From the sequence record PQ561394: a DNA stretch of 42,423 bases. One strand, given 5' to 3'. Below the pieces are notes generated by a model, which made no database searches, was not told where the DNA came from, and was given only the letters and a program-made list of their open reading frames with translations. Positions 5,279 through 39,130 of the stretch are shown piece by piece; positions within the stretch are counted from its first letter, which is position 1, and each line of letters begins with the position of its first letter. This stretch comes from Escherichia phage Ec1-ASingh. The position numbers and the translations under genes were made by a program.

Positions 5279-7711
5279 GTGGATTTACTTGCAGAGCAGA
5301 TTCGACTTGAAGAAGAAGCGCGAGCCAGACACCGCGAGGGCTGGCTGGATAATATCAAAGAGGCGATGGCCAGTGGCCGCGCCGGGTCGGTGCCGTTGCT
5401 CCAGCGTATGATGGTTGAGGCTTATCCTCTGGTCGAAGCTGCGATGCAAGAAACCCTGAGCGAAACGACCCGTGGGTATGGTGCGCAGTACCGGACGTAC
5501 ATGCGTGAGATTGGCACCAAAGCGTGTGCCTCTCTCGCACTGAGCATGGCGGTGTCCGGTGCTGCGTCGGAGCAGGCGGTACTGAGTCTGCTCAAGAGCA
5601 TGGGCAAGGCACTGATGGCTGAGGTGGTGTATCTCCGGGCGAAGCAGACCGGGCCACAGCAGGCGGCGTACATGGAGCGCGTTAAGCAAGACGTGAAGAA
5701 GTCTCGCTCGAAGTCAGCGAACCACGTCTACAATAAAGCGCGTGCGTCGGCGGCGAACGTTGGGGTAGAGATTGATGTGCTGCCGCAGCGTGCGCTGATT
5801 ACCATCGGCAAGCTGATGATGAAGTGCGTCGAGCCAACTGGTCTGGTGTCCACGATTCGCGTCGGCGGCAACCAGCGCCAGCGCGGTACGGCACACTTCG
5901 CCCTGCATGAAGATGTGCTGGCTACGATGAACGACTGGCTGGACATGCCGCGTGCTGATGGCATGTGCTGCCCACCGCTGATTATCCCACCGAAGCAGAT
6001 TGCCCCGAACGGTCGCAGCGGCATGTGGCATTCCGATGGGCAGGCAGCGATGTACCGGGTCATGAGTCGCATGAACCACAAAGGGTATCGTGCATTGAAC
6101 GTTGACCCGACCCCCGTTATAGAGCCGTGTATGATGCTCAGCAGCGTTCCGTACCGAGTTAACCCAATGGTACTGGAGTTCCTGCGAACGAACCGTACAG
6201 GCGTTATGGGGCTGCCTGTGCCACCTCGTGAGCCTACACTTCCGTTCACCATCCCCGCTGGTGTGAGCTTTGCACAGTACATCAGCAAGTTCCCACCAGA
6301 GATGCAGCAGCAGATGGATGCCGAAGCTCATGAGTACAAGGTGAAGACTCGCTTGTATTACAATGAGTTGCGTAAGTTCACGTCGCAGATGCTGGCGTTG
6401 AATGGTGCAGTCAAAGAGGCAGAAAGGTATGCGCAGTACGATAGGATTTATCTCCCGACTTACGCCGATACGCGGGGCCGAATTTATTATTCTTCGACCC
6501 TTAACCCTCAGTCTATCGACGCAGTGCGAGCGCTGCTTGAACTTGCGGAACCAGTGGCTCTCGGAACTGAGGGGCTGTTCTGGCTCAAGGTTCATGTTGC
6601 GAATTGTTTCGGCTACGACGCAACAGACTTCGACGACCGGGCGGCGTGGACGGACAAGACACTCCCCCGACTACGTGAGGCGTGCCGTCTTCCAGAGGCA
6701 TTTGATTCGTTCTGGTCAGAAGCCGATAGCCCTATCAGCGCGTGGGCTGCCTCTGTTGAACTCATTCGCGCTATCGACTCAGGAAGTCCTGAGACTTATC
6801 CCTGCCGAGTGGTTACGCAATGGGACGCTACCTGTTCAGGATTACAGCACCTCAGTGCGATGCTACGAGATGAAGTTGGCGGTGCTGCTGTCAATCTTAT
6901 CAATAGCGTGGGAAGAAAAGCAGACATATATCTCAAGACGGCAGCAGCGGCGATGCAGGCTCTTGAAGATAGTGAAGCGCAGTCACCGACGCAGATGGGT
7001 ACGTGGCTTGTTTCAATCGGTATTGTCCGGGCGATGGCTAAGAAGCCAGTGATGACCTACGTGTACGGGGCAACCCGGCACGGTATGGTGGACTACTACT
7101 GCCTGTATCTACGAGAGAACCGGGTCAAGCTGCCGGACGGCAAGAGCCTGCTGGAGTGTGCGCAGTTCATCGCAGAGTTCATGTGGAATGCAATCCCTCG
7201 CGTTGTGCCGAAGGCGGCAGAGCTGATGGCATGGTTGCAGGCTATCGCGGTTGAAGCGGCAGCCAACGGCGAGTACGTGGAAATCATCGCACCGTCAGGG
7301 TTGCGGGTGGTTAATCTGTATCAAGCCAGCAAGGAGACGATGCTCAACAACATCAACCTCATGGGTATCCACAGCATTAAGCTGCGCGAGTATCTGGACA
7401 AGCCGGACGGCAGGAAGTGTGCCGCTGCGATTGCTCCGAATTTCGTACACGCCATGGATGCCAGCCACATGATGAAGGTGTTGTGGGAGATGTGGAATAA
7501 CGGGGTGTACATGGTGTCCATCCACGATTCGTTCGGGGTGGCGGCTGCACATGCCGGGTTACTCCACAAGGTCATTCGTGAAAAGTTCGTACAGATGTAT
7601 GAGCAACATGACCCAATTCAACAACTTGCTGTACGATACAATGCTGTTGCACCTGAACGGGGCAATCTGGATATCCAGCTTGTGAAACAATCAAGCAAGT
7701 TTTTCTGCTGA
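5279..7711 (+). CDS. single-subunit DNA-dependent RNA polymerase (T7-like)
   Basis: 810 aa; [26 protein letters not shown] matches T7 RNAP catalytic motif ([20 protein letters not shown]); HDSFG motif C present; GTG start after AAGGAG. Confidence 0.95.
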   Translation: [810 protein letters not shown]

Positions 7712-7739: not shown

Positions 7740-7760
7740 ATGAAAGTGTCTATAGTGATA
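7740..7760 (+). promoter_or_regulatory. conserved motif ATGAAAGTGTCTATAGTGATA (candidate phage-RNAP promoter for late genes)
   Basis: Located in the RNAP-structural intergenic region; followed by palindrome GTGATAGATATCAC; recurs at 8009, 35978 and inverted at 29428. Confidence 0.4.
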
Positions 7761-7821
7761 GATATCACGCTACCGGTAGCCCCGTCAGTGGCGGGGGTTG
7801 CTGCCACTAAGAGAGGATTGT

Positions 7822-8008: not shown

Positions 8009-8428
8009 ATGAAAGTGTCTACTATGGGAAATACATCACACACGACGATGCCACTCGACATTCGCCGTGCTGTGGCCGAAGGCATTCAAGCTGAGCGGCC
8101 ATGGTCAGACCTATCTCCCGATGTGATTGTTGACAGCATGTACGAGGCCACCGCCTCCGGTTGCGTTGACGTTTACATCACTGCCGATGACGGCAGCCTC
8201 ATGGCTGTCGCTCACATCGGCAGGTTATTCGATATTCATGTGGGCGAGATGGTGGTCGTTATGGCCTCATACGTCTGGCCCCAGTACAGAAACCGTGGAG
8301 TGATGCGTGCCATCCTCCGTGTACTCAAAGACGTGGCCCGTTCAGCGGGTGTGCGTTGGTGCGGTTACTCCCATATGGTGCGGCCTTACGTTCAGGAGTA
8401 CCGCTTCATTGATTTGGAGAAACCGTAA
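8009..8428 (+). CDS. GNAT-like N-acetyltransferase (putative)
   Basis: 139 aa; segment VWPQYRNRGVMRAILRVLKDVARSAG resembles GNAT motif A (acetyl-CoA binding); start overlaps conserved ATGAAAGTGTCTA motif so true start may be ATG 8024. Confidence 0.45.
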   Translation: MKVSTMGNTSHTTMPLDIRRAVAEGIQAERPWSDLSPDVIVDSMYEATASGCVDVYITADDGSLMAVAHIGRLFDIHVGEMVVVMASYVWPQYRNRGVMRAILRVLKDVARSAGVRWCGYSHMVRPYVQEYRFIDLEKP

Positions 8429-8688
8429 TGGGTAGCGTAGGCAAAGTATTCAAGGGCATTGGCTCCGTCTTCGGACTGGGTAGCCAAAAGCCGCAGTACA
8501 CTATCAAGACTGACCCGGCGCAGGTCAAGGCAGAAACCATGCAGGCTAACCTTGCAGCCGACCTCGCTGGTGAGAACACCCCAACCATTCAGGCAGGTGG
8601 CCAAGTAAGCTCGGCCTCTGATACGCTGGGTGGTCGCCGCCGTCGCACCGGAACTGGTGTGGCAAGTAACCTCGGCATTGGGAGCTAA
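8428..8688 (+). CDS. hypothetical small Gly-rich protein (possible virion protein)
   Basis: 86 aa; TAATG overlap with upstream gene; position just before portal. Confidence 0.5.
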   Translation: MGSVGKVFKGIGSVFGLGSQKPQYTIKTDPAQVKAETMQANLAADLAGENTPTIQAGGQVSSASDTLGGRRRRTGTGVASNLGIGS

Positions 8689-11519: not shown

Positions 11520-12512
11520 ATGGCTGATAACGCTTATACCCCGAACCAGTTCCGTCCACACTGGGGTGGCGCGAACTCTGACAACGACATTCACCTTGAG
11601 GTGTATGACCGTGACGTGCAGACCCAGTTCATCTACAACTCCATCTTCCGTTCCGGTCTGACCAACTTCAAGTCTGTGGCTAACCAGTCCAACACTTGGC
11701 GTGGCGACCGTCTCGGCTCTGTGACCGTTAAAGGTCGTCGCTCTGGCGAGGCGCTGGACAACCAGCCTGTTCGCTCTGAGAAACTGATTGTCACTGTGGA
11801 TACCGTGTCTTACATCCGTATCCCGATTGACTATCAGGACGACTGGACTGCGCCGGACTTCCGTGCCGAGCTGACCCGTAACATGGGTACTGCTCAGGCT
11901 AAGGCGTTCGACCAAGCGCACGTCATCCAGCTCCAGAAGTCTGCTGACTTCGTGCCTCCGGCTTCTCTGGCTGGCGCGTTCAACGCAGGTATCAAGGAGC
12001 AGGTCACTCTGACTGGCACCGTGGCATCTGAGGAAGATGACGCGTCTGCGCTGGTACATGGCCACAAGAAAGCTATCGAGGCGTTCATTCGCCGCGACGC
12101 TGACCTTGGCCGTCTGGTTACGCTGATTGACCCGGCGTGGTTCAGCATTCTGCTGGAGCACAAGAAACTGATGAACGTTGAGTTCACTGGTGGCCGTGGT
12201 GTCAACGACTTTGCAATGCGTCGTGTGGCTTACGTGAACGGTATCCGTATCATCGAGAGCAACGCGTTCCCGCAGGCGGCAATCACTGACCACATCCTCG
12301 GCCCTGACTTCAACGTCACTGCCGACGAGATTCAGCGCAAGATGATTATCTTCGACCCGTCTCTGGCTCTGGTCACTGTCGAAGCCCAGCCGCTGTTCAA
12401 CCGCGTATGGGATGACGAACGTGAACTGACCAACGTTCTGGATAGCTTCCACATGTACACCGTGGGTCAGCGTCGTCCAGACGTGGTGGCAGTCGTCACT
12501 ACCGAGACCTAA
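11520..12512 (+). CDS. major capsid protein
   Basis: 330 aa, T7 gp10A-like size; followed by strong stem-loop; synteny. Confidence 0.8.
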   Translation: MADNAYTPNQFRPHWGGANSDNDIHLEVYDRDVQTQFIYNSIFRSGLTNFKSVANQSNTWRGDRLGSVTVKGRRSGEALDNQPVRSEKLIVTVDTVSYIRIPIDYQDDWTAPDFRAELTRNMGTAQAKAFDQAHVIQLQKSADFVPPASLAGAFNAGIKEQVTLTGTVASEEDDASALVHGHKKAIEAFIRRDADLGRLVTLIDPAWFSILLEHKKLMNVEFTGGRGVNDFAMRRVAYVNGIRIIESNAFPQAAITDHILGPDFNVTADEIQRKMIIFDPSLALVTVEAQPLFNRVWDDERELTNVLDSFHMYTVGQRRPDVVAVVTTET

Positions 12513-12522
12513 TGGTAAACTC

Positions 12523-12545
12523 GAAGCCCTTCTCTGAGGGGCTTC
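12523..12545 (+). terminator. stem-loop downstream of capsid gene (terminator-like; 10-bp stem with UUC/GAG closing pairs, triloop)
   Basis: GAAGCCC-TTC-tct-GAG-GGGCTTC; no clear U-tract, so may be a processing or stability element rather than an intrinsic terminator. Confidence 0.55.
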
Positions 12546-12568
12546 TATGATTATCACTGGGAGGTTTT

Positions 12569-22103: not shown

Positions 22104-24487
22104 TGGCGAACAGCTATAATGCTTACGTGGCGAACGGTTCACAGACCGCATTCCTCGTCACGTTCGAGCAGCGCGTGTTCACTGAGATTCAGGTGTACCT
22201 CAACTCCGAACTCCAGACGAGCGGGTACACCTACAACTCTGTGACCAAACAGATTATCTTTGACACCGCCCCGCTCGCCGGGGTGATTGTCCGACTCCAA
22301 CGCTACACCTCTGAGGTTCTGCTGAACAAGTTCGGCCAAGACGCTGCCTTCACCGGGCAGAACCTTGACGAGAACTTCGAGCAGATTCTGTTCAAGGCTG
22401 AGGAAACTCAGGAAGCATGGCTCGCGCCGCTTGACCGCGCCGTCCGTGTTCCGAACTCCGAGGTCTCAATCAACGCACTACCGAACGTCGCTGGCCGCCG
22501 CAACAAGGCGTTGGGCTTTGACAGCAATGGCCAGCCGTTCATGATTCCTCTGGTTGATATCCCGGACTCCGCTCTGGCGATTGCTCTGGCGATGGCTGAC
22601 GGCGGTAAGTGGATTGGTACTCTTGGCGGCGGCACGTTCCTCGACCGACAGGATACAGTCTGCCTGTCTGAGTTCACCAACAACACCGGGTACGCTTCTG
22701 TCGCCGCTGCGGTACAGGCTTGCTTCGATTATGCCAAGGCCAACAACAAGGTTGTGGATGCCCGTGGCTGGGAAGGTACTGTCAGCTCTACTGTCCTGAT
22801 GGACGGCATTGAGGTTGTTGGCGGTACGTGGAACGGTACGGCTGACATTCGCCTGCTGAACGCCACGTTCCGCAACTTCTCAGCATCGAAGGTTCGTGTC
22901 TGCTACTGGGGCGGTAATGTACGCATTGCTGACTACGAGTTTACTGACCACCCATCGGCATCGAAAGTTGCCAGCATCCTGTTCCAAGGTAACGTCGCCG
23001 GAGGCAGCTACGTCATTGAGAACGGCGTACACCGCAACGGTTACTTCGGTATTCTCCAACAGGGTACTGGTGAGGCCATTGATAACGGCGTGATTCGCAA
23101 CATCGCGCTCATGGATATGGCTGGCGACGGCATTGAGATGAACGTAATCAACAAGCACTATGATGGTGGCCTGCTGATTGAGAACATCTACCTCGAAAAT
23201 ATCGACGGTATCAACCCAACCTCCAACCCATCCTTCATCTCCAACTGGGGTATCGGTATCGGTTTGGCAGGTCAAGGCCCATTCGGGTGGGATGCTGCTG
23301 AGACGCAGTACGCGAAGAACATCACAGTGCGTGGTGTACATGCTCCGCGTGGTGTGCGTCAGGTTATCCACTTCGAAGTGTCCAAGAACTGTACGGTATA
23401 CGATGTACACGCCAACCCTGACCTGACTGTTTCCAACGGTACGGGTCTGACCGCCGCTGGCGTTATCACCTACGGCTGCAAGGACATGGTTATCGACGGG
23501 GTATACGGCGAGCCTATCGTCGGCAGCACTGGTACTGACCCGGCTGCGGTACGCCTTGTCATGTGCGAGTGGGGTGCTAACCAAGCGGGTGCTGGCGGTA
23601 CTCCGGGTGCATCTAACCCATCGTTTAACATGACACTGCGCAACATCTACACCAAGACTGGTCGTGTGTATGCTGGTGTTGGCTCGGATGACGAGAACAC
23701 CAACGTATACCACCTTGAGAATATCCACTGCTACCGACTCAGCCTGTTCGGGGTAGCCACTATTCTGAACATGACCAACGTGACGGGTGTTGACTTCGAC
23801 TGCGTAGGCGACGACTCCAGCGGCGGTACGTCCTCCAATGGTGTGTACCCGCGTAAGAAGACCGTCCTCAACATGGTGAACGTGAACTTCTACGGCCCCG
23901 GCAATACTGAGGGTGCGCTGTACAGTAAAGCTCGCTATTCGGATATCAGTACGCTGAACTCCAACGTGCGTGCTATCCCGTACACCAACATCCGAGGTAA
24001 CGTGGGTGTCATCCTGTCTCCGGTCAACCGCATGTACACGCTGCCGAACGACCTCGCTACCCTTGACGGTAATGAGTTCCCTACCGGGAAAGAGTTCTGC
24101 GAAGGTACTGTGCTGTTCAAGACCGATGGCTCAGGTGGCAATTTCATCGTGACCCGGTTCGGTGCGTATATCCCGGATGACGGCAACAACTTCAAGGTGC
24201 GTGCTGCTGCCGCTGGCCAGACGTATCTGGAGCAGAACCTGACTCCGGCTGGTACTCAGGCATCCACCTCGTGGCTTTACCATAAGCCAATCTCTGCTGG
24301 TACTCGACTAAACATTCCGGGTGCCGGGCCGGGCGGCGGTACGCTCACTGTAACGGTGGTGCGTGCCCCGTATCAGGTGGACAACAACATCGGAAACCCG
24401 GTGCGAATCGACATTACACCGCCCCTTGTGACGGCAATCCCTGCGGGAACGCAGCTCGCCGCTACCTACCCGGTGGCTTACATCTAA
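22103..24487 (+). CDS. tail fibre / tailspike protein with T7 gp17-like N-terminal anchor
   Basis: 794 aa; N-terminal ~120 aa resembles T7 gp17 N-domain pattern (...VTFEQRVFTEIQVYLN...LQRYTSEV...FGQDAAFTGQNLDENFEQILFKAEE); remainder Gly/Asn/Thr-rich, consistent with a beta-helix. Confidence 0.75.
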   Translation: MANSYNAYVANGSQTAFLVTFEQRVFTEIQVYLNSELQTSGYTYNSVTKQIIFDTAPLAGVIVRLQRYTSEVLLNKFGQDAAFTGQNLDENFEQILFKAEETQEAWLAPLDRAVRVPNSEVSINALPNVAGRRNKALGFDSNGQPFMIPLVDIPDSALAIALAMADGGKWIGTLGGGTFLDRQDTVCLSEFTNNTGYASVAAAVQACFDYAKANNKVVDARGWEGTVSSTVLMDGIEVVGGTWNGTADIRLLNATFRNFSASKVRVCYWGGNVRIADYEFTDHPSASKVASILFQGNVAGGSYVIENGVHRNGYFGILQQGTGEAIDNGVIRNIALMDMAGDGIEMNVINKHYDGGLLIENIYLENIDGINPTSNPSFISNWGIGIGLAGQGPFGWDAAETQYAKNITVRGVHAPRGVRQVIHFEVSKNCTVYDVHANPDLTVSNGTGLTAAGVITYGCKDMVIDGVYGEPIVGSTGTDPAAVRLVMCEWGANQAGAGGTPGASNPSFNMTLRNIYTKTGRVYAGVGSDDENTNVYHLENIHCYRLSLFGVATILNMTNVTGVDFDCVGDDSSGGTSSNGVYPRKKTVLNMVNVNFYGPGNTEGALYSKARYSDISTLNSNVRAIPYTNIRGNVGVILSPVNRMYTLPNDLATLDGNEFPTGKEFCEGTVLFKTDGSGGNFIVTRFGAYIPDDGNNFKVRAAAAGQTYLEQNLTPAGTQASTSWLYHKPISAGTRLNIPGAGPGGGTLTVTVVRAPYQVDNNIGNPVRIDITPPLVTAIPAGTQLAATYPVAYI

Positions 24488-28837: not shown

Positions 28838-29040
28838 GGGTATCCAAAAGCTGAGGCAATGAACAGGCCGTGGGTGCAATACCCCGGCTTGAAAATTGCA
28901 CGTTTATGCTTGCCCCTCCCTCGACCCAAATGACCGCGCGTGCCCCCATAGCGTGTGCGCGGATTAGCCTCGCGACGTGCGCGATATTTGCTCGCGTGCG
29001 CTGCGCGGCGCGTCAAGAGGATTGCCTGCGTGCGGTATAG

Positions 29041-29400
29041 CTCGTGCGTGTCGCGTTCCATCGTCTGCCGTGTGGCGTGCTGTGCGCTGTCCTGCTGGCT
29101 GTGCTGTGCGGTGCTGTCCTATGGGGACGCTCTGCGCTGGCTGTGCTGTGCTGTGTGGTGCGCGTGGTCGTGCGGGTATCTGTCTCTTTTCGTCGTGCGG
29201 CGTGGTGCTGTGTGGTGGTGTGGTGGCGGTGGTGCTGCCGTGGTGCTGTCCTGTCTGCTGGTCTACTCTCTGCGCCGCCAGCTCTGCGCGTCGTGCTCTG
29301 CTACCTGCTGTTACTGTCCTACTGCGTTCACTGTCTGCCGCCTGTCATCCTGTCGGATTCCATCCGTTGACGTTCCGCGCTCGCTTGTTTCGGCTGCGCC
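29041..29400. other. adenine-depleted low-complexity tract (putative terminal-repeat / genome-end region)
   Basis: About 14 A in 360 nt on + strand (~4%), G/T/C-rich with CTG/GTG/GCG iterations; ORFs called here are composition artefacts. Confidence 0.6.
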
Positions 29401-29570
29401 GCGCTCGCTCTGCGTATCTAGCGATACTATATCACTATAGACACTTTCATAATTATCTATTGATATCAGTAACTTATGACCTATCTGATAACGGTATTCT
29501 ATCCAGTGTTGTGATTATCTAATCAAACTTTAATCCTAATGATTACAGTAACTTATCACTTTTCTTGAAA
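29401..29570. other. AT-rich block with GATA-type palindromes and T7-like CACTATAG core
   Basis: TATCACTATAGACACTTTCAT at 29428-29449; TGATATCA and related palindromes at 29454-29500. Confidence 0.5.
29438..29450 (-). promoter_or_regulatory. inverted copy of conserved ATGAAAGTGTCTA motif (candidate phage-RNAP promoter element)
   Basis: Reverse complement of 29428-29448 is identical to 7740-7760 (21/21). Confidence 0.4.
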
Positions 29571-29577
29571 ATAATAC

Positions 29578-29608
29578 TTGCAAACTGTTTTGGTTATGTG
29601 CTGTAATT
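29578..29608 (+). promoter_or_regulatory. sigma70-like early promoter P1 (weaker)
   Basis: TTGCAA ... TGcTGTAAT with 19-bp spacer; extended -10 TG present. Confidence 0.35.
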
Positions 29609-29767
29609 CATCACGTCGAAAGGCACTAGCCAAGTAGACAGTTTAACGCGGTTGTGTCGCAACATGGGCATGACGGGGCATAAGTCCGATATACTGTGCA
29701 GCCAAACAGACGGCATGAGTGACAAGCCAACCGCATTAAACATTGCTCTTTAACAATCTGGAGTGTA

Positions 29768-29796
29768 TTGACAAGGCAAGCTCACTATGCTGTAAT
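29768..29796 (+). promoter_or_regulatory. sigma70-like early promoter P2
   Basis: TTGACA - 17 bp - TGTAAT with extended TG (TGcTGTAAT). Confidence 0.55.
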
Positions 29797-29905
29797 GCTT
29801 CCACGTCAGCCAGACAAGCCGAATAGTGATGGATAAACACGTTAACACCCGCGCAGGCTAACTGGTACGGTTTAATTAACTCTGAATGGGCGCTGATTAA
29901 ATCGG

Positions 29906-29934
29906 TTGACAGGATGAAACGAGTATGCTGTAAT
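29906..29934 (+). promoter_or_regulatory. sigma70-like early promoter P3
   Basis: TTGACA - 17 bp - TGTAAT with extended TG (TGcTGTAAT). Confidence 0.55.
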
Positions 29935-29985
29935 ACGCTCCAGATTGACAGGGCAGCAAGCCAGTCAGTCAGAAGTAAAAAGTAG

Positions 29986-30014
29986 TTGACAAGCTGAATA
30001 CACTGTGTTGTAAT
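29986..30014 (+). promoter_or_regulatory. sigma70-like early promoter P4
   Basis: TTGACA - 17 bp - TGTAAT with upstream TG (TGtTGTAAT). Confidence 0.55.
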
Positions 30015-30487
30015 CAGCACCGAGTTGAAAGGTTGCAAAACAACCTGCTCTGAGTGAACGTAAACAGGCCACGTAGTGTCTCGGCCTCATGGGTATCCGG
30101 CGCAGCTAGGAACTGGTGAGGGCACCGCCGAAAGGCAATAGGGGTAGCGCCCGGTGCAAGGTAACAGAGAAGCGCGATAGACGCAGCGCAGTATCAGCAC
30201 AATACCGAACGTCTTATAAGCATTGTAGACAGTAGGGGACGTAGCAAAACACACTCGACTTTGAGCTGGCGCGTAGCAGGTTGCGCAGGGTATGACTGAG
30301 TGTTGAGCGGAGTCGCTGAAAGATACTTAAACCCGATGATATATGCCGGGTCATGCGAAATGGGCGGGGCGATTTTTCAGGGTAGTGAATCCGACAAGCC
30401 AATCAATGCCACTGAGTGCAGACTGTACGGCGCGTCACAATGGGTTCACTATCCACCTGAAAATAGCCAACAACTGGAGAAATAACT

Positions 30488-30877
30488 ATGTACCGTATCT
30501 ATGCAAGCGCATACCGCCAGAACAATGCTGAGTGTGTTAATCTGGCGCTTCATTGCAAGGCACTGCGAACGGTGCAGGATATGTTCGGAGTGATTCCGGT
30601 CACACTGACAGGCAAGTTCGACAATGCGTATGAGTTAAGCATGGTCTTTCCTGTCGATGGAATCTACGAAATCAGACAGGCTGTTAAGCTGTTCTGTAAA
30701 GCCTTTGAACAGGACTGCATCATGGTAGTGACCGATGACAATGATGCAATCTTCATGGATTCACCGTATCCGGGCAAGCCTGCTGGCAAGCTGGTCAGCA
30801 AAACAGGCGAGCAGATGGAAGCCGGGCAGCATACCGCTTGGACTTATGACGGTGAACTGTTTTGGGTAGTGGAGTAA
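30488..30877 (+). CDS. early hypothetical protein (first early gene)
   Basis: 129 aa; GGAGAAA RBS; first ORF downstream of the promoter cluster. Confidence 0.6.
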   Translation: MYRIYASAYRQNNAECVNLALHCKALRTVQDMFGVIPVTLTGKFDNAYELSMVFPVDGIYEIRQAVKLFCKAFEQDCIMVVTDDNDAIFMDSPYPGKPAGKLVSKTGEQMEAGQHTAWTYDGELFWVVE

Positions 30878-30883
30878 GGGGGC

Positions 30884-30964
30884 ATGACTATGTTCACTGC
30901 ACTGTGTGTTATAGCAGCGGCCTGCTGGGTCATTGACCAGCGCCTGAGCCGTCGCCGTGGCTGA
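30884..30964 (+). CDS. possible 26-aa hydrophobic peptide
   Basis: MTMFTALCVIAAACWVIDQRLSRRRG; GGAG/GGGGG upstream; below the ORF-track length cutoff; low confidence. Confidence 0.25.
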   Translation: MTMFTALCVIAAACWVIDQRLSRRRG

Positions 30965-30970
30965 TAGCCT

Positions 30971-30992
30971 ATAGCGTCTTGCGAGGCGCTAT
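30971..30992 (+). promoter_or_regulatory. intergenic stem-loop
   Basis: ATAGCG-tcttgcgagg-CGCTAT. Confidence 0.35.
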
Positions 30993-31025
30993 GTGAAATC
31001 AACCAACCTGACAAGGGGTACTACC

Positions 31026-31553
31026 ATGCAATTCAAATACACTAGCTTCAAAAACGTTGTCCAGCTCGACAAGGCTATCGCTGAGTCAATCAGCAGCGCT
31101 AAAACACTGCGTGAAGGTATTCAGGACGTGGCTGTAGGCATTCTGATGCACGCTTACAAACACGGTGACTACACTCGTGCTGAGCATTACGTTAATGGAC
31201 TGGGAACAGGCGTTCGCCAGAAAGCTCTGGTTGACTGGTTCGTCCAGTTCGGCGGCCTGACCATCGGTACTCGCAGCAACGGCAACGTTGGCTTCGTGGG
31301 CTGGAAAGGCGCTGAGCACATCAAAGCTAACTTTGACAAGGCCAAAGAGACTGGCTGGTGGACTTGCAAGCCTGAATCTGCGTTTGAAGGATTCGACCTG
31401 CAAGCTGCGCTCGAAAAGCTGATTGTCAAAGCTGAGAAGGCGCTGAACAAGGCGAACGAACTGCGTCACGAAGGCAAGGACGAAGACGCGAACAAGGTCG
31501 TAGTGCCTCAGAACGTGCTCGACCTGCTGCGCAAGGCTAAACAAGCTGCGTGA
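31026..31553 (+). CDS. early hypothetical protein
   Basis: 175 aa from ATG 31026 (AAGGGG RBS); ORF-track N-terminal extension probably not translated. Confidence 0.6.
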   Translation: MQFKYTSFKNVVQLDKAIAESISSAKTLREGIQDVAVGILMHAYKHGDYTRAEHYVNGLGTGVRQKALVDWFVQFGGLTIGTRSNGNVGFVGWKGAEHIKANFDKAKETGWWTCKPESAFEGFDLQAALEKLIVKAEKALNKANELRHEGKDEDANKVVVPQNVLDLLRKAKQAA

Positions 31554-31560
31554 TTACTGA

Positions 31561-31583
31561 CAGGCCATTCACTGAGTGGCCTG
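31561..31583 (+). promoter_or_regulatory. intergenic stem-loop (UUC-nnn-GAG triloop family)
   Basis: CAGGCCA-TTC-act-GAG-TGGCCTG. Confidence 0.5.
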
Positions 31584-31618
31584 AATTGTAACCACACATC
31601 AACCTCAAGGGGTATAGC

Positions 31619-31897
31619 ATGACTTTTAAAGCTGTTGACACTCGCATCAAACCGAAAGCTGGTTCCGTTCCTGCCATTATCATGGAAGCCCAGCCTACTG
31701 GCCGCATCGTCGCCACGATTGACGACACTGGCCGCCTGAATATTCAGGAAGGCGCGGAGCAACTGCCGCACTTCAAGCAAAGCCGTGAACTGCTGGAAGA
31801 ATCCGGCGACTTCCTCTGGCTGCTGGATGATGACAACGACACGCCGTACGATGGCACGGTGCGCTGGGGTCGTCAGGAAGATTTCGAAGTGGCGTAA
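31619..31897 (+). CDS. small acidic early protein
   Basis: 92 aa; AAGGGG RBS; acidic C-terminus. Confidence 0.6.
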   Translation: MTFKAVDTRIKPKAGSVPAIIMEAQPTGRIVATIDDTGRLNIQEGAEQLPHFKQSRELLEESGDFLWLLDDDNDTPYDGTVRWGRQEDFEVA

Positions 31898-31911
31898 GCC
31901 GGGATTGACTC

Positions 31912-31950
31912 AAGCCAGTGTCAAGGCGCTGGCTTTATGGCAATTCTGCC
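31912..31950 (+). promoter_or_regulatory. cassette leader 1: hairpin plus GGCAATTCTGCC box
   Basis: AAGCCAG-tgtcaaggcg-CTGGCTT followed by tatGGCAATTCTGCC, then AGGAG and ATG 31973. Confidence 0.5.
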
Positions 31951-31972
31951 CCAACCATTTAGGAGCTTCACC

Positions 31973-32254
31973 ATGTCTATCAAAACTGTAACTGCTTTCA
32001 TCACCAAACGTGACGGCGAACTGTATGGCTTCGCTGTATCTCTGAACGAAGGCCAGTACCTGCACCACGTCCGTGAAGACGGCGAACCGACTGACAACGC
32101 TGGCATTCTGGAAACGCTGGCTGGTATCCCGCTGCCGCATGAGTTCATCATCATGCTCGCTGAGCAGGACGAAGACGAGCTGAAAGCGCGTCACGGTAGC
32201 GGCCTGACGCTGGAAGAAATCGGCACCTTCGAAGCCGAGGTTGACGACGAGTAA
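31973..32254 (+). CDS. small acidic early protein (cassette 1)
   Basis: 93 aa, strongly acidic (about 21 D/E versus 6 K/R); AGGAG RBS. Confidence 0.6.
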   Translation: MSIKTVTAFITKRDGELYGFAVSLNEGQYLHHVREDGEPTDNAGILETLAGIPLPHEFIIMLAEQDEDELKARHGSGLTLEEIGTFEAEVDDE

Positions 32255-32265
32255 GCGTTGTCCTG

Positions 32266-32303
32266 CTGCGCCTTCAACGAGGGCGCAGCGTGGCAATAAT
32301 GCC
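32266..32303 (+). promoter_or_regulatory. cassette leader 2: hairpin plus GGCAATAATGCC box
   Basis: CTGCGCC-TTC-aac-GAG-GGCGCAG followed by cgtGGCAATAATGCC, then GAGGG and ATG 32326. Confidence 0.5.
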
Positions 32304-32325
32304 TTACTCAATCGAGGGTTTTACT

Positions 32326-32667
32326 ATGACTATCAAACTGGTTCTGCTGTCCAACATCGCTGCCTCTGCTTTCGGCGCAGGCGTTCCGGCTGACGCTATC
32401 ACCAGCGAGTGGGTTGGCTTCACTCAGGACGACGAGCGTTACCTGATTGCAGGCCGCAACCGCGACGGCGATTCGCCTGACGAAATCGTGGCGCACTTCG
32501 ATAACGACACCAGCTTCGCAGAGTTCCGCGAGTCTGGCTTCCCGCTGGAACTGTTCGCTCTCATGGGCGGCCACTCCTACATCGACACCGAAACACTGGG
32601 TGAAGGTGTGGTTATCAACGTGCTCAAAGAGTACGACGCGGAAGACGATATCGACTTCGACGCGTGA
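32326..32667 (+). CDS. small acidic early protein (cassette 2)
   Basis: 113 aa; acidic C-terminus ...EYDAEDDIDFDA. Confidence 0.6.
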   Translation: MTIKLVLLSNIAASAFGAGVPADAITSEWVGFTQDDERYLIAGRNRDGDSPDEIVAHFDNDTSFAEFRESGFPLELFALMGGHSYIDTETLGEGVVINVLKEYDAEDDIDFDA

Positions 32668-32673
32668 TGCCTT

Positions 32674-32711
32674 GTTGCCTCCTTGCGAGGGGGCAATGCG
32701 GCAATCATGCC
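32674..32711 (+). promoter_or_regulatory. cassette leader 3: hairpin plus GGCAATCATGCC box
   Basis: TTGCCTCC-ttgcga-GGGGGCAA followed by tgcGGCAATCATGCC, then GAGGA and ATG 32733. Confidence 0.5.
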
Positions 32712-32732
32712 TTAACCTATCGAGGATTTATT

Positions 32733-33008
32733 ATGTCCACTATCAATGTGTTTGCACTGAACAACGGCGGTCTGGCTTTCATCGTAGGCGAGACCAAAGA
32801 TAACGCACCGTCGCTGGGCGTGCAGCCGAAGCCGGACGCAAGCCACGATGAAGTAATCGGTGAAGTGCGCGAGGCGCTGGAAGACCTCGGCGGTATGCTG
32901 ATTGCCATTCAGGGTGGCAAGCTCTCCGTCGAGAAGCTGAACGAACTGGAGCCGCGCTTCATCACCAGCTTCGAAGCCGACAACGTAGACGCGGCTGACT
33001 TCGAGTAA
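32733..33008 (+). CDS. small acidic early protein (cassette 3)
   Basis: 91 aa; acidic C-terminus ...EADNVDAADFE. Confidence 0.6.
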   Translation: MSTINVFALNNGGLAFIVGETKDNAPSLGVQPKPDASHDEVIGEVREALEDLGGMLIAIQGGKLSVEKLNELEPRFITSFEADNVDAADFE

Positions 33009-33036
33009 CCCACAACCAACAACAGGAGTACAAAGC

Positions 33037-33267
33037 ATGGCTAAGTTTGAACTGGTACGCTTCATCGACCCGAACGATGGCGAAGTAACCTTCGCACAGT
33101 TTGCCAATGACCGCGAGCTGGTCGCCATCTACAACACTGAGCGCACGGCGCGGCGCTGGTTCAAGGAAGACGAGGACATGGACAGCATTGAAGATGCGCT
33201 GGCTATGCCGGGCTACGCTGAGGCTGTCGAGGCAGCACTGAAAGGCGAAGTCGTAGCGACTGCGTGA
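33037..33267 (+). CDS. small acidic early protein
   Basis: 76 aa; AGGAG RBS; lacks the hairpin/box leader. Confidence 0.55.
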   Translation: MAKFELVRFIDPNDGEVTFAQFANDRELVAIYNTERTARRWFKEDEDMDSIEDALAMPGYAEAVEAALKGEVVATA

Positions 33268-33274
33268 TTTCTGT

Positions 33275-33313
33275 CAGCCCATCCATAGCGGTGGGCTGTA
33301 GGGCAATCATGCC
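33275..33313 (+). promoter_or_regulatory. cassette leader 4: hairpin plus GGCAATCATGCC box
   Basis: CAGCCCA-tccatagcgg-TGGGCTG followed by tagGGCAATCATGCC, then GAGGG and ATG 33336. Confidence 0.5.
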
Positions 33314-33335
33314 ACAACTAACTGAGGGTTTTACC

Positions 33336-33620
33336 ATGGCTAAAGTAACTGCATACTACTCCGCTTCTGAAAAAGATATCGTTGCAATCGTGGGCGATGG
33401 CTTCGAAGAAGGCAACATGGCGCTGTGTATCTCCGGCTGCAAAGACGTACCGGAACTGAACACGGTTGAAGATGCGAAGGCTGCGCTGCCGTCGCTGGAA
33501 TCTGACATCAGCCGCATGGGTGAGCTGGCGTTCCTGCTGAACGGCGGCACCTTGAATGAGGGCGCGGCTGTGAACATGCCTGCCAAGGGCTACGAAGCGA
33601 TTGGTAGCTTCGAGGTCTAA
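33336..33620 (+). CDS. small acidic early protein (cassette 4)
   Basis: 94 aa; GAGGG RBS. Confidence 0.6.
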   Translation: MAKVTAYYSASEKDIVAIVGDGFEEGNMALCISGCKDVPELNTVEDAKAALPSLESDISRMGELAFLLNGGTLNEGAAVNMPAKGYEAIGSFEV

Positions 33621-33622
33621 GC

Positions 33623-33958
33623 ATGGCGCTGCATCCGGTCAAGGTATTCCGTGGGCCTGACATTACGGATGGGCAAGACGTGGCGGTACTGCTGTACCGC
33701 CTGCCCGATGGTCAGGAAGGGCTGGTCGTTATCGACCAGATTGAAATCTTAGGTCAGCAGATGCTGACGAGCGAGGCGACCGACGAGCAAATCATCGACC
33801 GCTTCAAAGCGTACGCCGGACGCAGGCCATTCATCATTGACCTGCTGAACGAGCAACATCATAGCGCCGCGCCGCTGGCTGTCCAGACGTGGCTCAAGAT
33901 ACTGACTCCCATCTACGAAGGGCAGATGTATCTCTTTGGTATCGACAACGAGGTGTAA
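33623..33958 (+). CDS. early hypothetical protein
   Basis: 111 aa; GAGGT RBS. Confidence 0.55.
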   Translation: MALHPVKVFRGPDITDGQDVAVLLYRLPDGQEGLVVIDQIEILGQQMLTSEATDEQIIDRFKAYAGRRPFIIDLLNEQHHSAAPLAVQTWLKILTPIYEGQMYLFGIDNEV

Positions 33959-33960
33959 TC

Positions 33961-34227
33961 ATGGCGCACTATCTTGCGAGAGTTCGTGTAATGGTCAATG
34001 GTCTGGAGCACATCGAGCGCGAGGTGGTGCAGGCTATCGACTACGAGGCAGCAGAGCAAAAGGTTGACGCACTGCTGCGGGGTGGCTGGTTCACTCACGA
34101 CACATTCAGTTGGTTCGACAGTGACACCAACTGGTACAACTTCCAAGGCGAGAACGAAGCAGCTCGCATTGAAAGTATCGACGGCATCCCAACTGAGGAT
34201 GCTCTTGTTCTCCAAAAATATATCTGA
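33961..34227 (+). CDS. early hypothetical protein
   Basis: 88 aa from ATG 33961 (GAGGTG RBS). Confidence 0.55.
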   Translation: MAHYLARVRVMVNGLEHIEREVVQAIDYEAAEQKVDALLRGGWFTHDTFSWFDSDTNWYNFQGENEAARIESIDGIPTEDALVLQKYI

Positions 34228-34237
34228 GGTACACAAC

Positions 34238-34480
34238 ATGGCACGTTCAATTCTGATTCGCATCATCGGTCACACTTCCCAGCCTGCACATTTATCTGGT
34301 GCAGTACGTGACACCACCATCGGCAAAGAGTATGACGCACTGCTGGTTGAGGCTGGCGAAGAAACGCCGGACGGTTACGAGACTGACGAGCAGGGTGTAT
34401 TCTTCGTTGACGATGTGGGTGACGAGTGCTTCGCATTCACTGCCGCACACGTTGGTCACACCATCGAAATCGTCGAGTGA
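34238..34480 (+). CDS. small acidic early protein
   Basis: 80 aa from ATG 34238 (GAGGT RBS); ORF-track extension upstream unlikely. Confidence 0.55.
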   Translation: MARSILIRIIGHTSQPAHLSGAVRDTTIGKEYDALLVEAGEETPDGYETDEQGVFFVDDVGDECFAFTAAHVGHTIEIVE

Positions 34481-34487
34481 TAAGCTA

Positions 34488-34509
34488 CAGCCTCTGCTTG
34501 CGGGGGCTG
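34488..34509 (+). promoter_or_regulatory. intergenic stem-loop
   Basis: CAGCCTC-tgcttgc-GGGGGCTG (one G-U wobble); stem and loop similar to the 32674 hairpin. Confidence 0.4.
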
Positions 34510-34536
34510 TGTCATTATCAAACGAGCGAGGTCACT

Positions 34537-34689
34537 ATGAGTGGGAGCACATACAATGCCCACGCCAACCAGATATCATACGCTGGTTACTGTGCGCTGG
34601 GCGGGGCGAGCAACCCTAACCTAATGAGCCGGGCGGTATACCTCGGCGGTCACTACATGCACCATGAATATTATTTAATCCGGGGGTAG
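34537..34689 (+). CDS. hypothetical small protein
   Basis: 50 aa; GAGG RBS 9 nt upstream. Confidence 0.35.
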   Translation: MSGSTYNAHANQISYAGYCALGGASNPNLMSRAVYLGGHYMHHEYYLIRG

Positions 34690-34691
34690 TT

Positions 34692-34976
34692 ATGGTACTG
34701 GCATCTGAATCACTTATCGAACAAGCTGGCGCAATTCGTGAGGCTGAGCATCTGCGTGGGGTAGCCGCAACGCTCGGTCATTGTGCTGGTAACGGCGGCC
34801 TGCGTGGGCACTCGGTCGGCGGCGTATTCCCCTGCGTAATTTTCTCGCGGGGCAACCCACATGAACACCTCGACTGGTGCTTCCTCGCACCGAACGGCGA
34901 CGAGTTCGACGGCTTCATCAGTTATGAAGATGCGTATGCAGCCGCGCAACAATGGCTGGAAGAAAGAGAGGTGTGA
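34692..34976 (+). CDS. early hypothetical protein
   Basis: 94 aa; GGGGGT RBS. Confidence 0.55.
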   Translation: MVLASESLIEQAGAIREAEHLRGVAATLGHCAGNGGLRGHSVGGVFPCVIFSRGNPHEHLDWCFLAPNGDEFDGFISYEDAYAAAQQWLEEREV

Positions 34977-34978
34977 CT

Positions 34979-35278
34979 ATGAGTAAGTGGAGTGAGAACG
35001 TAGCCAAGCTACAGCGTTGGTTGGTGGATGCCTTTGGCGCACCGCCAGCACCTGTGCATGACGACTCGCCGTTCCAGTACGTCGAGAAGAAAACGCAGGA
35101 GCTTAAGCTGGGCGACTACGTGGTAGCATACGGCGGGTACATCCAGCGCATCGGTGCCGTGGAATATGACGGCAGCCGACTGGTCGTTACCAAACTGGGG
35201 CATGGCCCTGAGCGTGAGTGGCAAGCGTACGAGGACGACGAGTTCACCGTGCGCGTTCTGAAAGAGGATAGCAAATGA
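34979..35278 (+). CDS. early hypothetical protein
   Basis: 99 aa from ATG 34979 (AGAGAGGTG RBS). Confidence 0.55.
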   Translation: MSKWSENVAKLQRWLVDAFGAPPAPVHDDSPFQYVEKKTQELKLGDYVVAYGGYIQRIGAVEYDGSRLVVTKLGHGPEREWQAYEDDEFTVRVLKEDSK

Positions 35279-35787
35279 TTGACTTCAAAACATTTAACCC
35301 TAAGCAGTTGGAAGTAATCAAGCTGCTGGCTGAGCACATCGACAGCGAGCCGATGCTCAGTGAAATCATTGAGTACAAGGGCGGGTACATGCCGAAGCAA
35401 AGTTACATCGGCGCGGTGCGTGCTGGTAAAGAGGCGGCGCTGGATATTATTCCGGCCACTCGTACTGGTGCGCTGCTGGCTCGCAACGTCAGCGTCATCA
35501 TCGGCATGAACATGCGGGTGGCGCAGGCTGCTGGCGACGAGGAAGCACAGGTCGAGCTGCGTCTGGCTGGCAAGCTGGCGGCGCAAGCCATGTCGAGCAA
35601 GGATATTGCTGAGCAGTATCACGACTGGTACATGGCGTGCGCCAACGTGCCGAAGGATATCAGCGAGACTGCGCTGGGTCTGCTGTTCGTGGGTGAGTTC
35701 ATTGACGCAACGATTCGTACCCTCAAGGGTAACGTTGAAGAAATGATTCGTGCAATGCTGGAGTCGAAGAATGCAACGCGACACTAA
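35275..35787 (+). CDS. hypothetical protein
   Basis: 170 aa; ATGA overlap with upstream gene. Confidence 0.6.
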   Translation: MIDFKTFNPKQLEVIKLLAEHIDSEPMLSEIIEYKGGYMPKQSYIGAVRAGKEAALDIIPATRTGALLARNVSVIIGMNMRVAQAAGDEEAQVELRLAGKLAAQAMSSKDIAEQYHDWYMACANVPKDISETALGLLFVGEFIDATIRTLKGNVEEMIRAMLESKNATRH

Positions 35788-35941
35788 GCTGGCCGTAATC
35801 AAATCACCCACCGGATTATTCTGGTGGGTTGTTAATAAACTCCAGCCGAATAAACCTTTGGCTGTACGTGATACAAAGTGGGAGGCCGAGAGTAAACTCG
35901 AAGACCTGCAACGTATAGTGCGTAATGTTATTCCGGCGTAG
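35771..35941 (+). CDS. hypothetical small basic protein
   Basis: 56 aa; GGAG RBS 8 nt upstream; overlaps 3' end of previous gene. Confidence 0.35.
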   Translation: MQRDTKLAVIKSPTGLFWWVVNKLQPNKPLAVRDTKWEAESKLEDLQRIVRNVIPA

Positions 35942-35977
35942 TCATCTACTCATGCCTGTTATTATTTAGCAGGCATT

Positions 35978-35990
35978 ATGAAGGTGTCTA
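35978..35990 (+). promoter_or_regulatory. conserved motif ATGAAGGTGTCTA (third + strand copy), preceded by hairpin
   Basis: Follows hairpin ATGCCTG-ttattatttag-CAGGCAT (35952-35976); 23 nt upstream of the 36014 start codon. Confidence 0.35.
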
Positions 35991-36013
35991 TATTGGCCAA
36001 CGTGAGGTGAACT

Positions 36014-36217
36014 ATGTTCAAAGTAATATTGTTGTTCCTGCTTCTGGTAATTATTTGGGGAGCATTATGGGTGGGTCTTGCATCATTGGTGCTTATCCCT
36101 GCTGTCGGTGAGTCAGCCACTTCAACACTGGGCACGCTGCTCGGTATGCTGGTGGGCTGGGGTCTGATGCAGTTGAGCCTGAGTGTAGGCCAGAGCCGGA
36201 GGTGGATTAAATGGTGA
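36014..36217 (+). CDS. small two-TM membrane protein
   Basis: 67 aa; GAGGTG RBS; two hydrophobic helices. Confidence 0.5.
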   Translation: MFKVILLFLLLVIIWGALWVGLASLVLIPAVGESATSTLGTLLGMLVGWGLMQLSLSVGQSRRWIKW

Positions 36218-38966: not shown

Positions 38967-39130
38967 AGGGGCGCAGCTATCGCCGTTGCTCTTGCGGCGG
39001 CAGCCTGCTGACTGAGCAGGTAAAGGGCAAGGCCACTGGCAAAGTGCTGGTGATTTATGAATGTGAAAAGTGTGGAGTAAAGCAGTATGGAAGAACGCAC
39101 GTATCGAGCGGCACCCTTAAACCAACGTGA
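38963..39130 (+). CDS. possible small zinc-ribbon protein
   Basis: 55-aa GTG-initiated ORF with CSCGG ... CEKCG (two Cys pairs); overlaps the 39087 ORF in another frame. Confidence 0.3.
   Translation: MKGRSYRRCSCGGSLLTEQVKGKATGKVLVIYECEKCGVKQYGRTHVSSGTLKPT

Follow-up and report, generated by a model that had tools for sequence, protein, structure and literature searches.

Most of the G+C-rich hairpins that follow the capsid gene and separate the early genes of Escherichia phage Ec1-ASingh are read here as the upper stems of T7-type RNase III processing signals, an identification that is very probable for the six sites matched by a covariance model of T7 sites and is held with less confidence for the others, on the strength of sequence likeness and modelled RNA folds. 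The element is of a textbook kind, and its recognition in the Bonnellvirus group appears to be new: no RNase III sites in phiKMV-like, Bonnellvirus or LIMEzero phages turned up in a literature search, and RNase III, terminators and hairpins go unmentioned in the Bonnellvirus genome papers examined. The specificity of RNase III is degenerate, and sequence-based prediction of its sites is correspondingly imperfect.

The window analysed here is the whole 42,423-nt sequence of record PQ561394. It is 100% identical to Enterobacter phage BHUENT7, whose record is unannotated, and 80-99% identical to Bonnellvirus phages, including megetsur, LF82-23, altidsur, RZ4, Kc261 and J8-65; by sequence, the phage belongs to the genus Bonnellvirus (Autographivirales, Autoscriptoviridae, Stentvirinae). 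The assembly is circularly permuted with an arbitrary start point, and all genes lie on the + strand. The gene map, taken from annotated relatives, starts the early genes at the SAMase gene (30488) and ends them near 36.0 kb. DNA metabolism genes run on from 36 kb across the arbitrary start to 5.2 kb, followed by the phage RNA polymerase gene (5279-7711) and, between 8 and 27 kb, by structural genes, among them the major capsid gene (11520-12512, stop TAA 12510-12512) and the tail tubular protein A gene (ATG 12569), which lies 3′ of the putative capsid-gene processing site.

Four sigma70-like promoters on the + strand (29578..30014; TTGACA/TTGCAA, an N17-18 spacer bearing a TGn extension, TGTAAT) are the presumed source of the polycistronic early transcript on which the early sites lie. 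Their pattern has four matches on the + strand of the window and none on the - strand, and similar host promoters are annotated in the LIMEzero record; a consensus scan missed them because the -10 hexamer has G at position 2. A second repeated consensus, ATGAAAGTGTCTATAGTG, occurs in the window only at 7740, 8009 and 35978 on the + strand and at 29433 on the - strand, and the three + strand copies are likely promoters for the phage polymerase, with phage promoters annotated at corresponding places in LIMEzero.

A sequence-only reading of the window had proposed a family of hairpins with a UUC-nnn-GAG apex at gene boundaries. The three hairpins that it named do share a TTC-nnn-GAG apex on + strand stems of 10-12 bp: GAAGCCC-TTC-tct-GAG-GGGCTTC after the capsid gene (12523-12545), CAGGCCA-TTC-act-GAG-TGGCCTG in the early region (31561-31583), and TGCTGCGCC-TTC-aac-GAG-GGCGCAGCG (32264-32290), which exists where an early-region hairpin had been placed at 32266, with a stem that really begins at 32264 and has 12 bp. 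The apex TTCNNNGAG with at least seven further flanking pairs is found three times on the + strand of the window and not at all on the - strand, and the mean chance expectation from 300 dinucleotide shuffles is 0.02. Six related hairpins were also located on the + strand, each 0-2 nt from the start first given for it (30970-30993, 31912-31935, 32673-32698, 33275-33298, 34486-34511 and 35952-35976), with differing apexes (UGCG, CAAG, CUUG, CAUAGC and UUAUU loops), and a further hairpin, absent from that earlier list, lies at 35806-35829. The hairpins start 5-14 nt 3′ of a stop codon, in intercistronic spacers of 56-75 nt. As the definition of a family, the UUC-nnn-GAG apex proved too narrow, and its conservation in relatives is partial: the 12523 upper stem is invariant, and the apex of the 32264 orthologue is replaced by CCUUGCGAGG in five relatives (RZ4, Kc261, glasur, usur and altidsur).

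Folding places these 10-bp hairpins as the apical half of longer, irregular stem-loops of 45-65 nt in the + strand RNA. In minimum free energy folds of 80-100 nt segments, sequence around the stop codon of the upstream gene pairs with sequence on the 3′ side of the hairpin. The result is a lower stem (6-10 pairs), then an internal loop or bulge, and above it a G+C-rich upper stem (9-12 pairs) whose loop is stable. Totals of 17-27 pairs per site are reached at 12509, 31547, 31898, 32249, 32662, 33261, 34476 and 35938; this irregular design of about two helical turns is weak at 30970 and is not seen at 35806. Examples of the lower stem are CCUA-A-UGGUAA...UUAUCA-C-UGGG around 12523, GAGUAAG...CUUACUC around 32264, and GCGUGAUU...AAUCAUGC around 33275, and a conserved motif, GGCAATnATGCC, found 3′ of four early hairpins is the 3′ strand of their lower stems. 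The + strand RNA is 3-11 kcal/mol more stable than the - strand RNA in nine of the ten extended sites because the U.G pairs carry U on the 5′ arm, and the hairpins are therefore taken to be RNA elements of the transcribed strand.

In the folding-energy calculation suggested with the sequence-only reading, the extended sites fold 3 to 6.5 sd below shuffled sequences. The mean energy gain from the lower stem was -10.4 kcal/mol compared with -6.2 kcal/mol for shuffled flanks and was consistent across sites; it was modest site by site (p 0.003-0.25 against shuffled flanks), and a Fisher combination of the per-site values gives p ~1e-4, but these sites are paralogous. No such gain was found in 14 control hairpins inside genes. 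In some orthologues (RZ4 1713, Kc261 1755 and J8-65 24373), the single-sequence minimum free energy fold favors other local structures.

The strongest link to known processing signals comes from a covariance model, R1, built from seven T7 sites only and searched against both strands of the window with filters off. Its top six window matches are six of the listed hairpins, all on the + strand and at full length (E 2.5e-6 to 0.16). As a positive control, R1 recovered, at 39-59 bits, five of five stem-loops that the T3 RefSeq record labels "RNase III recognition site"; the annotated T3 record was chosen because RNase III sites are not among the features given for T7 in NC_001604 and V01146. With R1, scores reach 47.7 bits at sites in relatives, and the window sites score higher on the + strand. 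A second-round model, R2, returned no further sites elsewhere in the window, and Rfam had nothing at the gathering threshold in the window, with matches around the sites only at chance level (E up to 1).

For T7 itself, the cleavage coordinates used were those reportedly given by Dunn and Studier (1983): 890, 1468, 3138, 5887, 6448, 13892 and 36856. Folds around the early cleavage positions show the same hairpin design and share long identical stretches with the window, and no such structure appeared on folding at the positions taken for two further sites, R6.5 and R13. T7 R0.5 reads GUGAUAGACUC-[AAGGUCGCUC..GAGUGGCCUU]-UAUGAUUAUCACU, and the window site at 12509 reads GGUAAACUC-[GAAGCCCUUC-UCU-GAGGGGCUUC]-UAUGAUUAUCACU, with the same 3′ block. 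T7 R1.1, AAACUC-[AAGGUCAUUC-GCAA-GAGUGGCCUU]-UAUGAUUG, can be compared with CAGGCCAUUC-ACU-GAGUGGCCUG at 31561, and its GCAA loop recurs in the lidtsur capsid site. T7 R1, CAGGUCAUC-UGCG-GGUGGCCUG, is one base apart from an early hairpin of J8-65, CAGGCCAUC-UGCG-GGUGGCCUG. The T7/T3 sites (R0.3, R0.5, R1, R1.1, R1.3, R4.7 and R18.5) and the window sites are alike in being intercistronic and on the transcribed strand; in having a 9-12 bp upper stem, an internal loop and a lower stem; in the blocks ACUC...UAUGAU and the apexes CAUUC-loop-GAGUG (T7 R1.1) or CAUC-UGCG-GGUG; and in a U.G/U-A distal box at bp 8-9; A-U at bp 2 may be a further likeness. They differ in that the window phage is one of the Autoscriptoviridae with a phiKMV-type gene order whereas T7 and T3 are Studiervirinae, in that one window site follows the major capsid gene, a position taken in T7 by the terminator Tphi, and in that the hairpins at 32264, 32673 and 33275 have smaller internal loops and share a 3′ strand, GGCAATnATGCC, that T7 lacks.

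The best R1 match in the window is the signal between the capsid gene and tail tubular protein A (12509..12561, +; upper stem 12523-12545), with 36.3 bits and E 2.5e-6. Its internal loop is ACUC/UAUGA, and its lower stem is formed by UGGUAA/UUAUCA plus CCUA/UGGG. The signal at 31547..31599 (+), after an ORF ending at 31553 (TGA), has its upper stem at 31561-31583, lower stems UUAC/GUAA and GUG/CAC, and a likeness to T7 R1 and R1.1; it scores 29.3 bits (E 1.4e-4), and its lower stem covaries from UUAC/GUAA to UAAC/GUUA in paralogues of J8-65 and smaasur. At 31898..31951 (+), after an ORF ending at 31897, the internal loop ACUC/UAUG is as in T7, the upper stem (31912-31935) has U.G at bp 8, and the lower stem GGGAUUG/CAAUUCU is part of a GGCAATTCTGCC motif; R1 gives 24.7 bits and E 2.2e-3. 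The signal at the end of the early region (35938..35992, +; upper stem 35952-35976) again has the internal loop ACUC/UAUGA, with the canonical U.G/U-A at bp 8-9 and an R1 score of 27.6 bits (E 3.9e-4). The 3′ strand of its lower stem overlaps a putative phage promoter at 35978-35995, and in RZ4, Kc261 and usur promoter variants are accompanied by covariation in this lower stem.

The two remaining R1 matches are weaker. At 34476..34525 (+), with 20.1 bits and E 0.03, the lower stem UGAUAA/UUAUCA includes the stop codon, the upper stem (34486-34511) is capped by a G(CUUG)C loop, and 13 enclosing pairs form compared with 6.4 with shuffled flanks (p=0.003). At 33261..33314 (+), with 17.3 bits and E 0.16 for R1 and 41 bits for R2, the lower stem GCGUGAUU/AAUCAUGC includes the stop TGA 33265-33267, the internal loop is 2x2, and the upper stem (33275-33298) resembles T7 R1. 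This upper stem carries three compensatory pairs in LF82-23, and in the LIMEzero counterpart the stop is TAA in place of TGA, a change compensated in the 3′ strand by C to U.

Two further sites form more regular helices, and the R1 search of the window returned neither of them; structure and covariation are what suggest the membership of 32264 and 32673. The first (32249..32309, +) is a long, near-continuous helix of ~26 pairs with its upper stem at 32264-32290, a UUC-AAC-GAG apex, and a lower stem, GAGUAAG/CUUACUC, that takes in the stop codon TAA 32252-32254; RNAalifold gives a consensus of 26 pairs, R2 scores it at 16.5 bits (E 0.07), and it is a probable RNase III substrate of a more regular type. 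The second (32662..32710, +) is an extended helix of GCGUGAU/AUCAUGC, which includes the stop, followed by GCC/GGC and the upper stem 32673-32698, and its 3′ strand is a GGCAATCATGCC motif. RNAalifold finds a consensus with compensatory changes among 11 sequences from six phages, and the extension is worth -17.4 kcal/mol compared with -7.5 kcal/mol for shuffled flanks (p=0.003).

The hairpin at 30970-30993 belongs to a candidate site (30962..31001, +) with U.G at bp 8; the internal loop, AGCC/UGAA, is 4x4, and the lower stem is short, the stop pairing as UGAU/AUCA. It is a possible member of the family; neither R1 nor R2 matches it in the window. In KP34-like phages, with sequences taken from PMC4411677, the lower stem of this type of motif is kept and its sequence changed (AAUUAC/GUAAUU, GUAGCA/UGCAAC), and the KP34 match to the motif scores 18.3 bits. 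The strong hairpin at 35806..35829 (+), inside a doubtful small ORF, falls outside the family: its bp 8 is G.U and not U.G, its bp 2 is C-G, any lower stem falls short of significance (ddG p=0.70), and no match was returned there by R1.

The positions of particular pairs can be set against what is known of the enzyme. In T7 R1.1, the distal box UA/UG is a positive determinant whose U.G pair is stringently needed, G-C or C-G at proximal-box position 2 is an antideterminant that blocks binding, and a minimum helix of ~11 bp is needed from the cut to a loop of irrelevant sequence (Pertzev and Nicholson, PMC1540722). Internal loops restrict RNase III to one strand, leaving protective 3′ hairpins (PMC1540722, PMC3867540). 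By sequence, the U-G, U-A, C-G apex corresponds to the distal box UA/UG and a closing pair. The box lies at bp 8-9 of the 10-bp stem, as far from the internal loop as its R1.1 equivalent does. U.G with U on the 5′ arm occupies bp 8 at eight of ten window sites, compared with 5 of 64 background hairpins, and is present at 13 of 15 distinct sites of relatives. U-A follows at bp 9 in 12523, 31561 and 35952, and in the 12-bp stem at 32264 U.G/U-A lies at bp 10-11. Seven of the ten sites have A-U or U-A at bp 2, with the proximal box tentatively mapped onto the upper stem from residue numbers in PMC1540722. The UUC...GAG apex does not appear to be strictly required because the feature common to the sites is U.G at bp 8 together with the extended helix.

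Pairing is preserved across relatives by compensatory change, in the lower helix as well as the upper. For covariation, 15 distinct sites were taken from Bonnellvirus phages and LIMEzero and aligned to the T7 model; in this set 90.6% of cells are paired, compared with 68% for shuffled and 33-44% for slid partners, and changes on both sides occur in 17 of 20 pairs, including 8 of 10 in the lower helix. These pair counts are inflated by the fitting of the alignments (A2 and A5) to the model, and RNAalifold was also applied to plain MAFFT alignments because the 15-site alignment had been so fitted; there it predicts extended helices, lower stems included, for the GGCAAT-class sites. In the 32249 lower stem, RZ4 carries a synonymous GAG-to-GAA change that is offset by C to U (G-C to A-U), and Kc261 shows a G.U intermediate. 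Six distinct sequences of the capsid site come from phages in which identity between the tail tubular A proteins falls as low as 66%; among them the upper stem does not vary, the loop is free (UCU, UCAC, GCAA, UCAG and AUU), and two lower-stem pairs are compensatory.

A rival reading holds that the hairpins are passive stabilizers of the REP or malE-malF type, with no role for RNase III and with transcript ends generated by RNase E or by decay that starts downstream. Each hairpin does sit 3′ of a cistron on a stable upper stem with a stable loop (UGCG and CUUG, and UACG in relatives), and the thermodynamic signal of the lower stem is modest at single sites; yet this reading leaves unexplained the U.G/U-A distal box at a fixed position, the T7-like ACUC/UAUGA internal loops, the significant R1 matches, and the covariation of the lower helix, and it is very unlikely. 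In REP elements such as that of malE-malF, a stable hairpin 3′ of a cistron shields the upstream segment from 3′-5′ exonucleases. The window hairpins differ in being embedded in a longer helix with RNase III determinants, and because the hairpin sits in such an RNase III-type helix, the 3′ end is expected to come from a specific endonucleolytic cut and not from decay.

Termination was a further possibility, with host RNA polymerase stopping or pausing at the early hairpins and phage RNA polymerase at the one that follows the capsid gene. The hairpins are G+C-rich and lie directly 3′ of stop codons, and the one at 12523 occupies the position of T7 Tphi and has a moderately U-rich tail (UAUGAUUAU). 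At this position, KP34-like phages carry GCCCCTGGTGCC-TTCG-GGTGCCAGGGGC and then a run of T9-T10, and more distant IMG/VR relatives carry an ordinary hairpin-plus-U-tract terminator. The LIMEzero record labels the counterparts of 12523 and 35952 "putative factor-independent terminator", and the tails there are U-rich. The capsid-gene site resembles T7 Tphi and the KP34-like capsid-gene terminators as a G+C-rich hairpin at the same position after a highly expressed gene, but the window sites differ in having no U-run, in lacking the T-run of the KP34-like capsid-gene hairpin, and in having a covarying lower stem, which, with its stop codon, is foreign to terminators.

The absence of a clear U-tract, as the sequence-only reading had noticed, was borne out at every site: the tails (UAUGAUUA, AAUUGUAA, UGGCAAUA, CGGCAAUC, UAGGGCAA, UCAUUAUC and UAUGAAGG) hold none, and a scan for a hairpin followed by a T-run returned none of the hairpins. 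The class II signal ATCTGTT was found in the window only at 22248 and 37568, both on the - strand, and none lies near the sites. Eight of the nine listed hairpins are early, following the sigma70-like promoters and preceding the phage RNA polymerase gene by a wide margin, which counts against termination by the phage enzyme, and downstream early genes would fall silent behind eight or nine efficient terminators in a row. The homologous T7 and T3 elements are processing sites and not terminators, which also counts against this reading, and termination is very unlikely. Of the three alternatives first offered (pausing or termination by the phage RNA polymerase, processing by RNase III or RNase E, and stabilization of mRNA 3′ ends), the evidence favors RNase III processing with 3′ stabilization, and pausing or termination by the phage RNA polymerase is unsupported.

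A role at the DNA level, as phage-polymerase promoters or as recombination cassettes that shuffle early genes, is highly improbable. In favor of promoters, AGCCTATAGCGTCCTACGGGGCGCTATGTGAA, which corresponds to the window 30970 hairpin, is listed for KP34-like phages as a "phage promoter consensus", with reservations (PMC4411677), and in favor of recombination, breakpoints of homology between the window and relatives coincide with the cassettes, some of which are isolated islands of similarity in J8-65. Against both, the U.G pairs correspond to C-A mismatches on the opposite strand, and it is the + strand that folds and scores better. A better-placed phage promoter consensus, ATGAAAGTGTCTATAGTG, is available at 7740, 8009 and 35978 and is overlapped only by 35938-35992, with the 3′ strand of its lower stem. 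Compensatory stem changes, which occur even within the KP34-like motif (G-C to A-U), are not needed by a linear promoter. Conserved cassettes may recombine as a side effect, and such recombination does not conflict with the RNase III explanation.

Several smaller candidates were set aside. A sigma70 promoter assembled from the apex (TTCAAC or TTGCGA as -35) and GGCAATnATGCC (AATAAT as -10) would have inconsistent spacers of 14-18 nt and poor -35 matches; the promoter scan was blank there, and GGCAATnATGCC is the 3′ strand of the lower stem. A sigma54 reading of TGGCA-N-TGCC has a GG-to-GC spacing of 8, not 10. GGCA-AUnA-UGCC as an independent mini-hairpin has a stem that never covaries and is an alternative fold in some orthologues only. 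The U.G asymmetry is against a DNA cruciform, and anti-SD/SD pairing inside the hairpins (CCUCCU...GGGGG) was judged to be a by-product of G+C-rich stems with U.G pairs.

As RNase III signals, the sites would act on both classes of transcript. Host RNA polymerase would produce a polycistronic early transcript from the promoters at 29.58-30.01 kb, and late transcripts would pass through the capsid gene. A host RNase III dimer would bind the coaxial helix of about two turns, recognizing the U.G and U-A pairs of the distal box high in the upper stem and, at the base of that stem, the A-U-rich proximal pairs, and would cut the 3′ strand ~3 nt past the upper stem, at UAU^GA by T7 homology; the proposal is that only this strand is cut because of the internal loop. 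The cut at the capsid-gene site is predicted by the same homology between 12548 and 12549 (12548/9), and the others at 31586/7, 31938/9, 33301/2, 34514/5 and 35979/80. The upstream mRNA would then end in the upper hairpin, blocking 3′-5′ exonucleases, and the downstream mRNA would gain a new 5′ end 20-35 nt before a start codon. At 12509-12561 the Shine-Dalgarno sequence for tail tubular protein A is partly taken up by the lower stem, and cleavage there might free it and aid translation. For the regular helices at 32249-32309 and 32662-32710, cutting of both strands is a speculative possibility.

Exact mRNA ends are thereby predicted and can be checked, and Bonnellvirus phages would be expected to need host RNase III for mRNA stability and possibly for translation. 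The annotation would be corrected and completed in a phage group used for therapy and host-range work, in which the "terminators" of LIMEzero, and likewise the "phage promoter consensus" of KP34-like phages, are better read as RNase III processing signals. Synthetic genomes should keep the cassettes of 45-65 nt whole, including the stop-codon region.

The cassettes also recall a system in T4-type phages, in which, as Arbiol et al. reportedly found in 2010, PeSL cassettes combine a stem-loop with an early promoter. The likeness lies in repeated stem-loops between small early genes and in their coincidence with the borders of swapped modules; the difference is that the promoter scan detected none in the window cassettes, which have an RNase III-type helix instead. 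A tentative extension is that RNase III-site cassettes are modules exchangeable across distant Autographivirales (T7/T3, Bonnellvirus, LIMEzero and KP34) that double as recombination junctions for early genes, and that one of them replaced a Tphi-type terminator after the Bonnellvirus capsid gene, so that the 3′ end of the most abundant late mRNA would be made by processing and not by termination. T7-like RNase III sites would on this evidence reach beyond the T7 subfamily, with striking conservation of sequence: near-identical copies of the cassette are found in T7/T3, Bonnellvirus, LIMEzero and KP34.

Across 30400-36100, the points where homology between the window and its relatives breaks off are concentrated at the hairpin cassettes, for example at 31549-31598, 31885-31892, 34459-34478, and 30946-30967. 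In J8-65, another Bonnellvirus, some cassettes persist as lone similarity islands of 70-100 nt amid unrelated small genes. The cassettes look like junctions for the exchange of gene modules. An unannotated 26-codon ORF at 30885-30964 (MTMFTALCVIAAACWVIDQRLSRRRG), located immediately 3′ of the SAMase gene, has its own Shine-Dalgarno-like sequence, GGGGG, and ends 5 nt before the hairpin at 30970; its product could be a small membrane peptide.

The same cassettes are found beyond the genus. KP34, a Drulisvirus from a different subfamily, carries counterparts of the window cassettes at 30970-30993 (itself a possible member) and 33261-33314 at its own positions 2266-2319 and 2509-2559, taking the forms GCGUGAUUUCU-hairpin-GGGCAAUCAUGCC and AGCC-UAUAGCGUCC-loop-GGGCGCUAUG-UGAA. 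In KP34-like phages the AGCC...UGAA form, which is the motif of the 30970 hairpin, has appeared in print under the name "phage promoter consensus" (PMC4411677). In SP6, the RNase III-site model derived from T7 matched 8526-8585 (21 bits, E 0.007), which is the spacer between the primase/helicase gene and gp11; SP6-like phages may also have T7-type RNase III sites.

The window has further hairpins. Two of these, at 35806-35829 and 35843-35864, lie downstream of an ORF whose end is at 35787 and upstream of the site at 35938, where relatives have an annotated ORF of 56 aa. The hairpin at 35806-35829 is conserved and very stable (-17.4 kcal/mol), with neither RNase III features nor a U-tract, and the ORF drawn over it may not be a real gene. 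Two adjacent hairpins at 38982-39001 (GCCGUUGC-UCUU-GCGGCGGC) and 39003-39021 (GCCUGCU-GACUG-AGCAGGU) occupy a gap of ∼120 nt after a gene ending at 38966 and are kept in megetsur, altidsur, RZ4, and Kc261; neither was matched by the RNase III models.

An 18-mer, ATGAAAGTGTCTATAGTG, recurs in the window with 0-3 mismatches (chance expectation 0.02) and is probably the promoter of the phage RNA polymerase. Copies occur on the + strand at 7740-7757, 8009-8026, and, after the early region, 35978-35995, while a leftward-pointing copy on the - strand at 29433-29450, near the genome end, recalls phiOL/phiOR of T7. In Kc261 and usur the sequence of the post-early-region copy is ATGAAAGCTACTATA, with covarying changes in the 5′ strand of the lower stem of the RNase III-type site. 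Directly downstream of the putative promoter at 7740 are overlapping G+C-rich hairpins (7780-7808; CCCCGUC-AGU-GGCGGGG and AGUGGCGG-GGGUUG-CUGCCACU), which would be part of the late transcript's 5′ leader.

Host-type promoters are represented by four sigma70-like sequences at 29578-30014, each with a consensus -35 element, a TGn extension, and the unusual -10 hexamer TGTAAT. Position 2 of the sigma70 -10 hexamer is normally invariant, and here it is G. A standard promoter scan of the window did not pick up these four, and TGTAAT is common to them and to the annotated host promoters of the related phage LIMEzero. Between the endolysin gene and these early promoters, the non-coding stretch at 28900-29400 is very G/T-rich on the + strand, with numerous short repeats of the GTGCTGTG, CGCGTGC, and GGTGGTG types. 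Terminal repeats of 259 bp are annotated in J8-65, and 28900-29400 is probably the counterpart of the terminal-repeat region.
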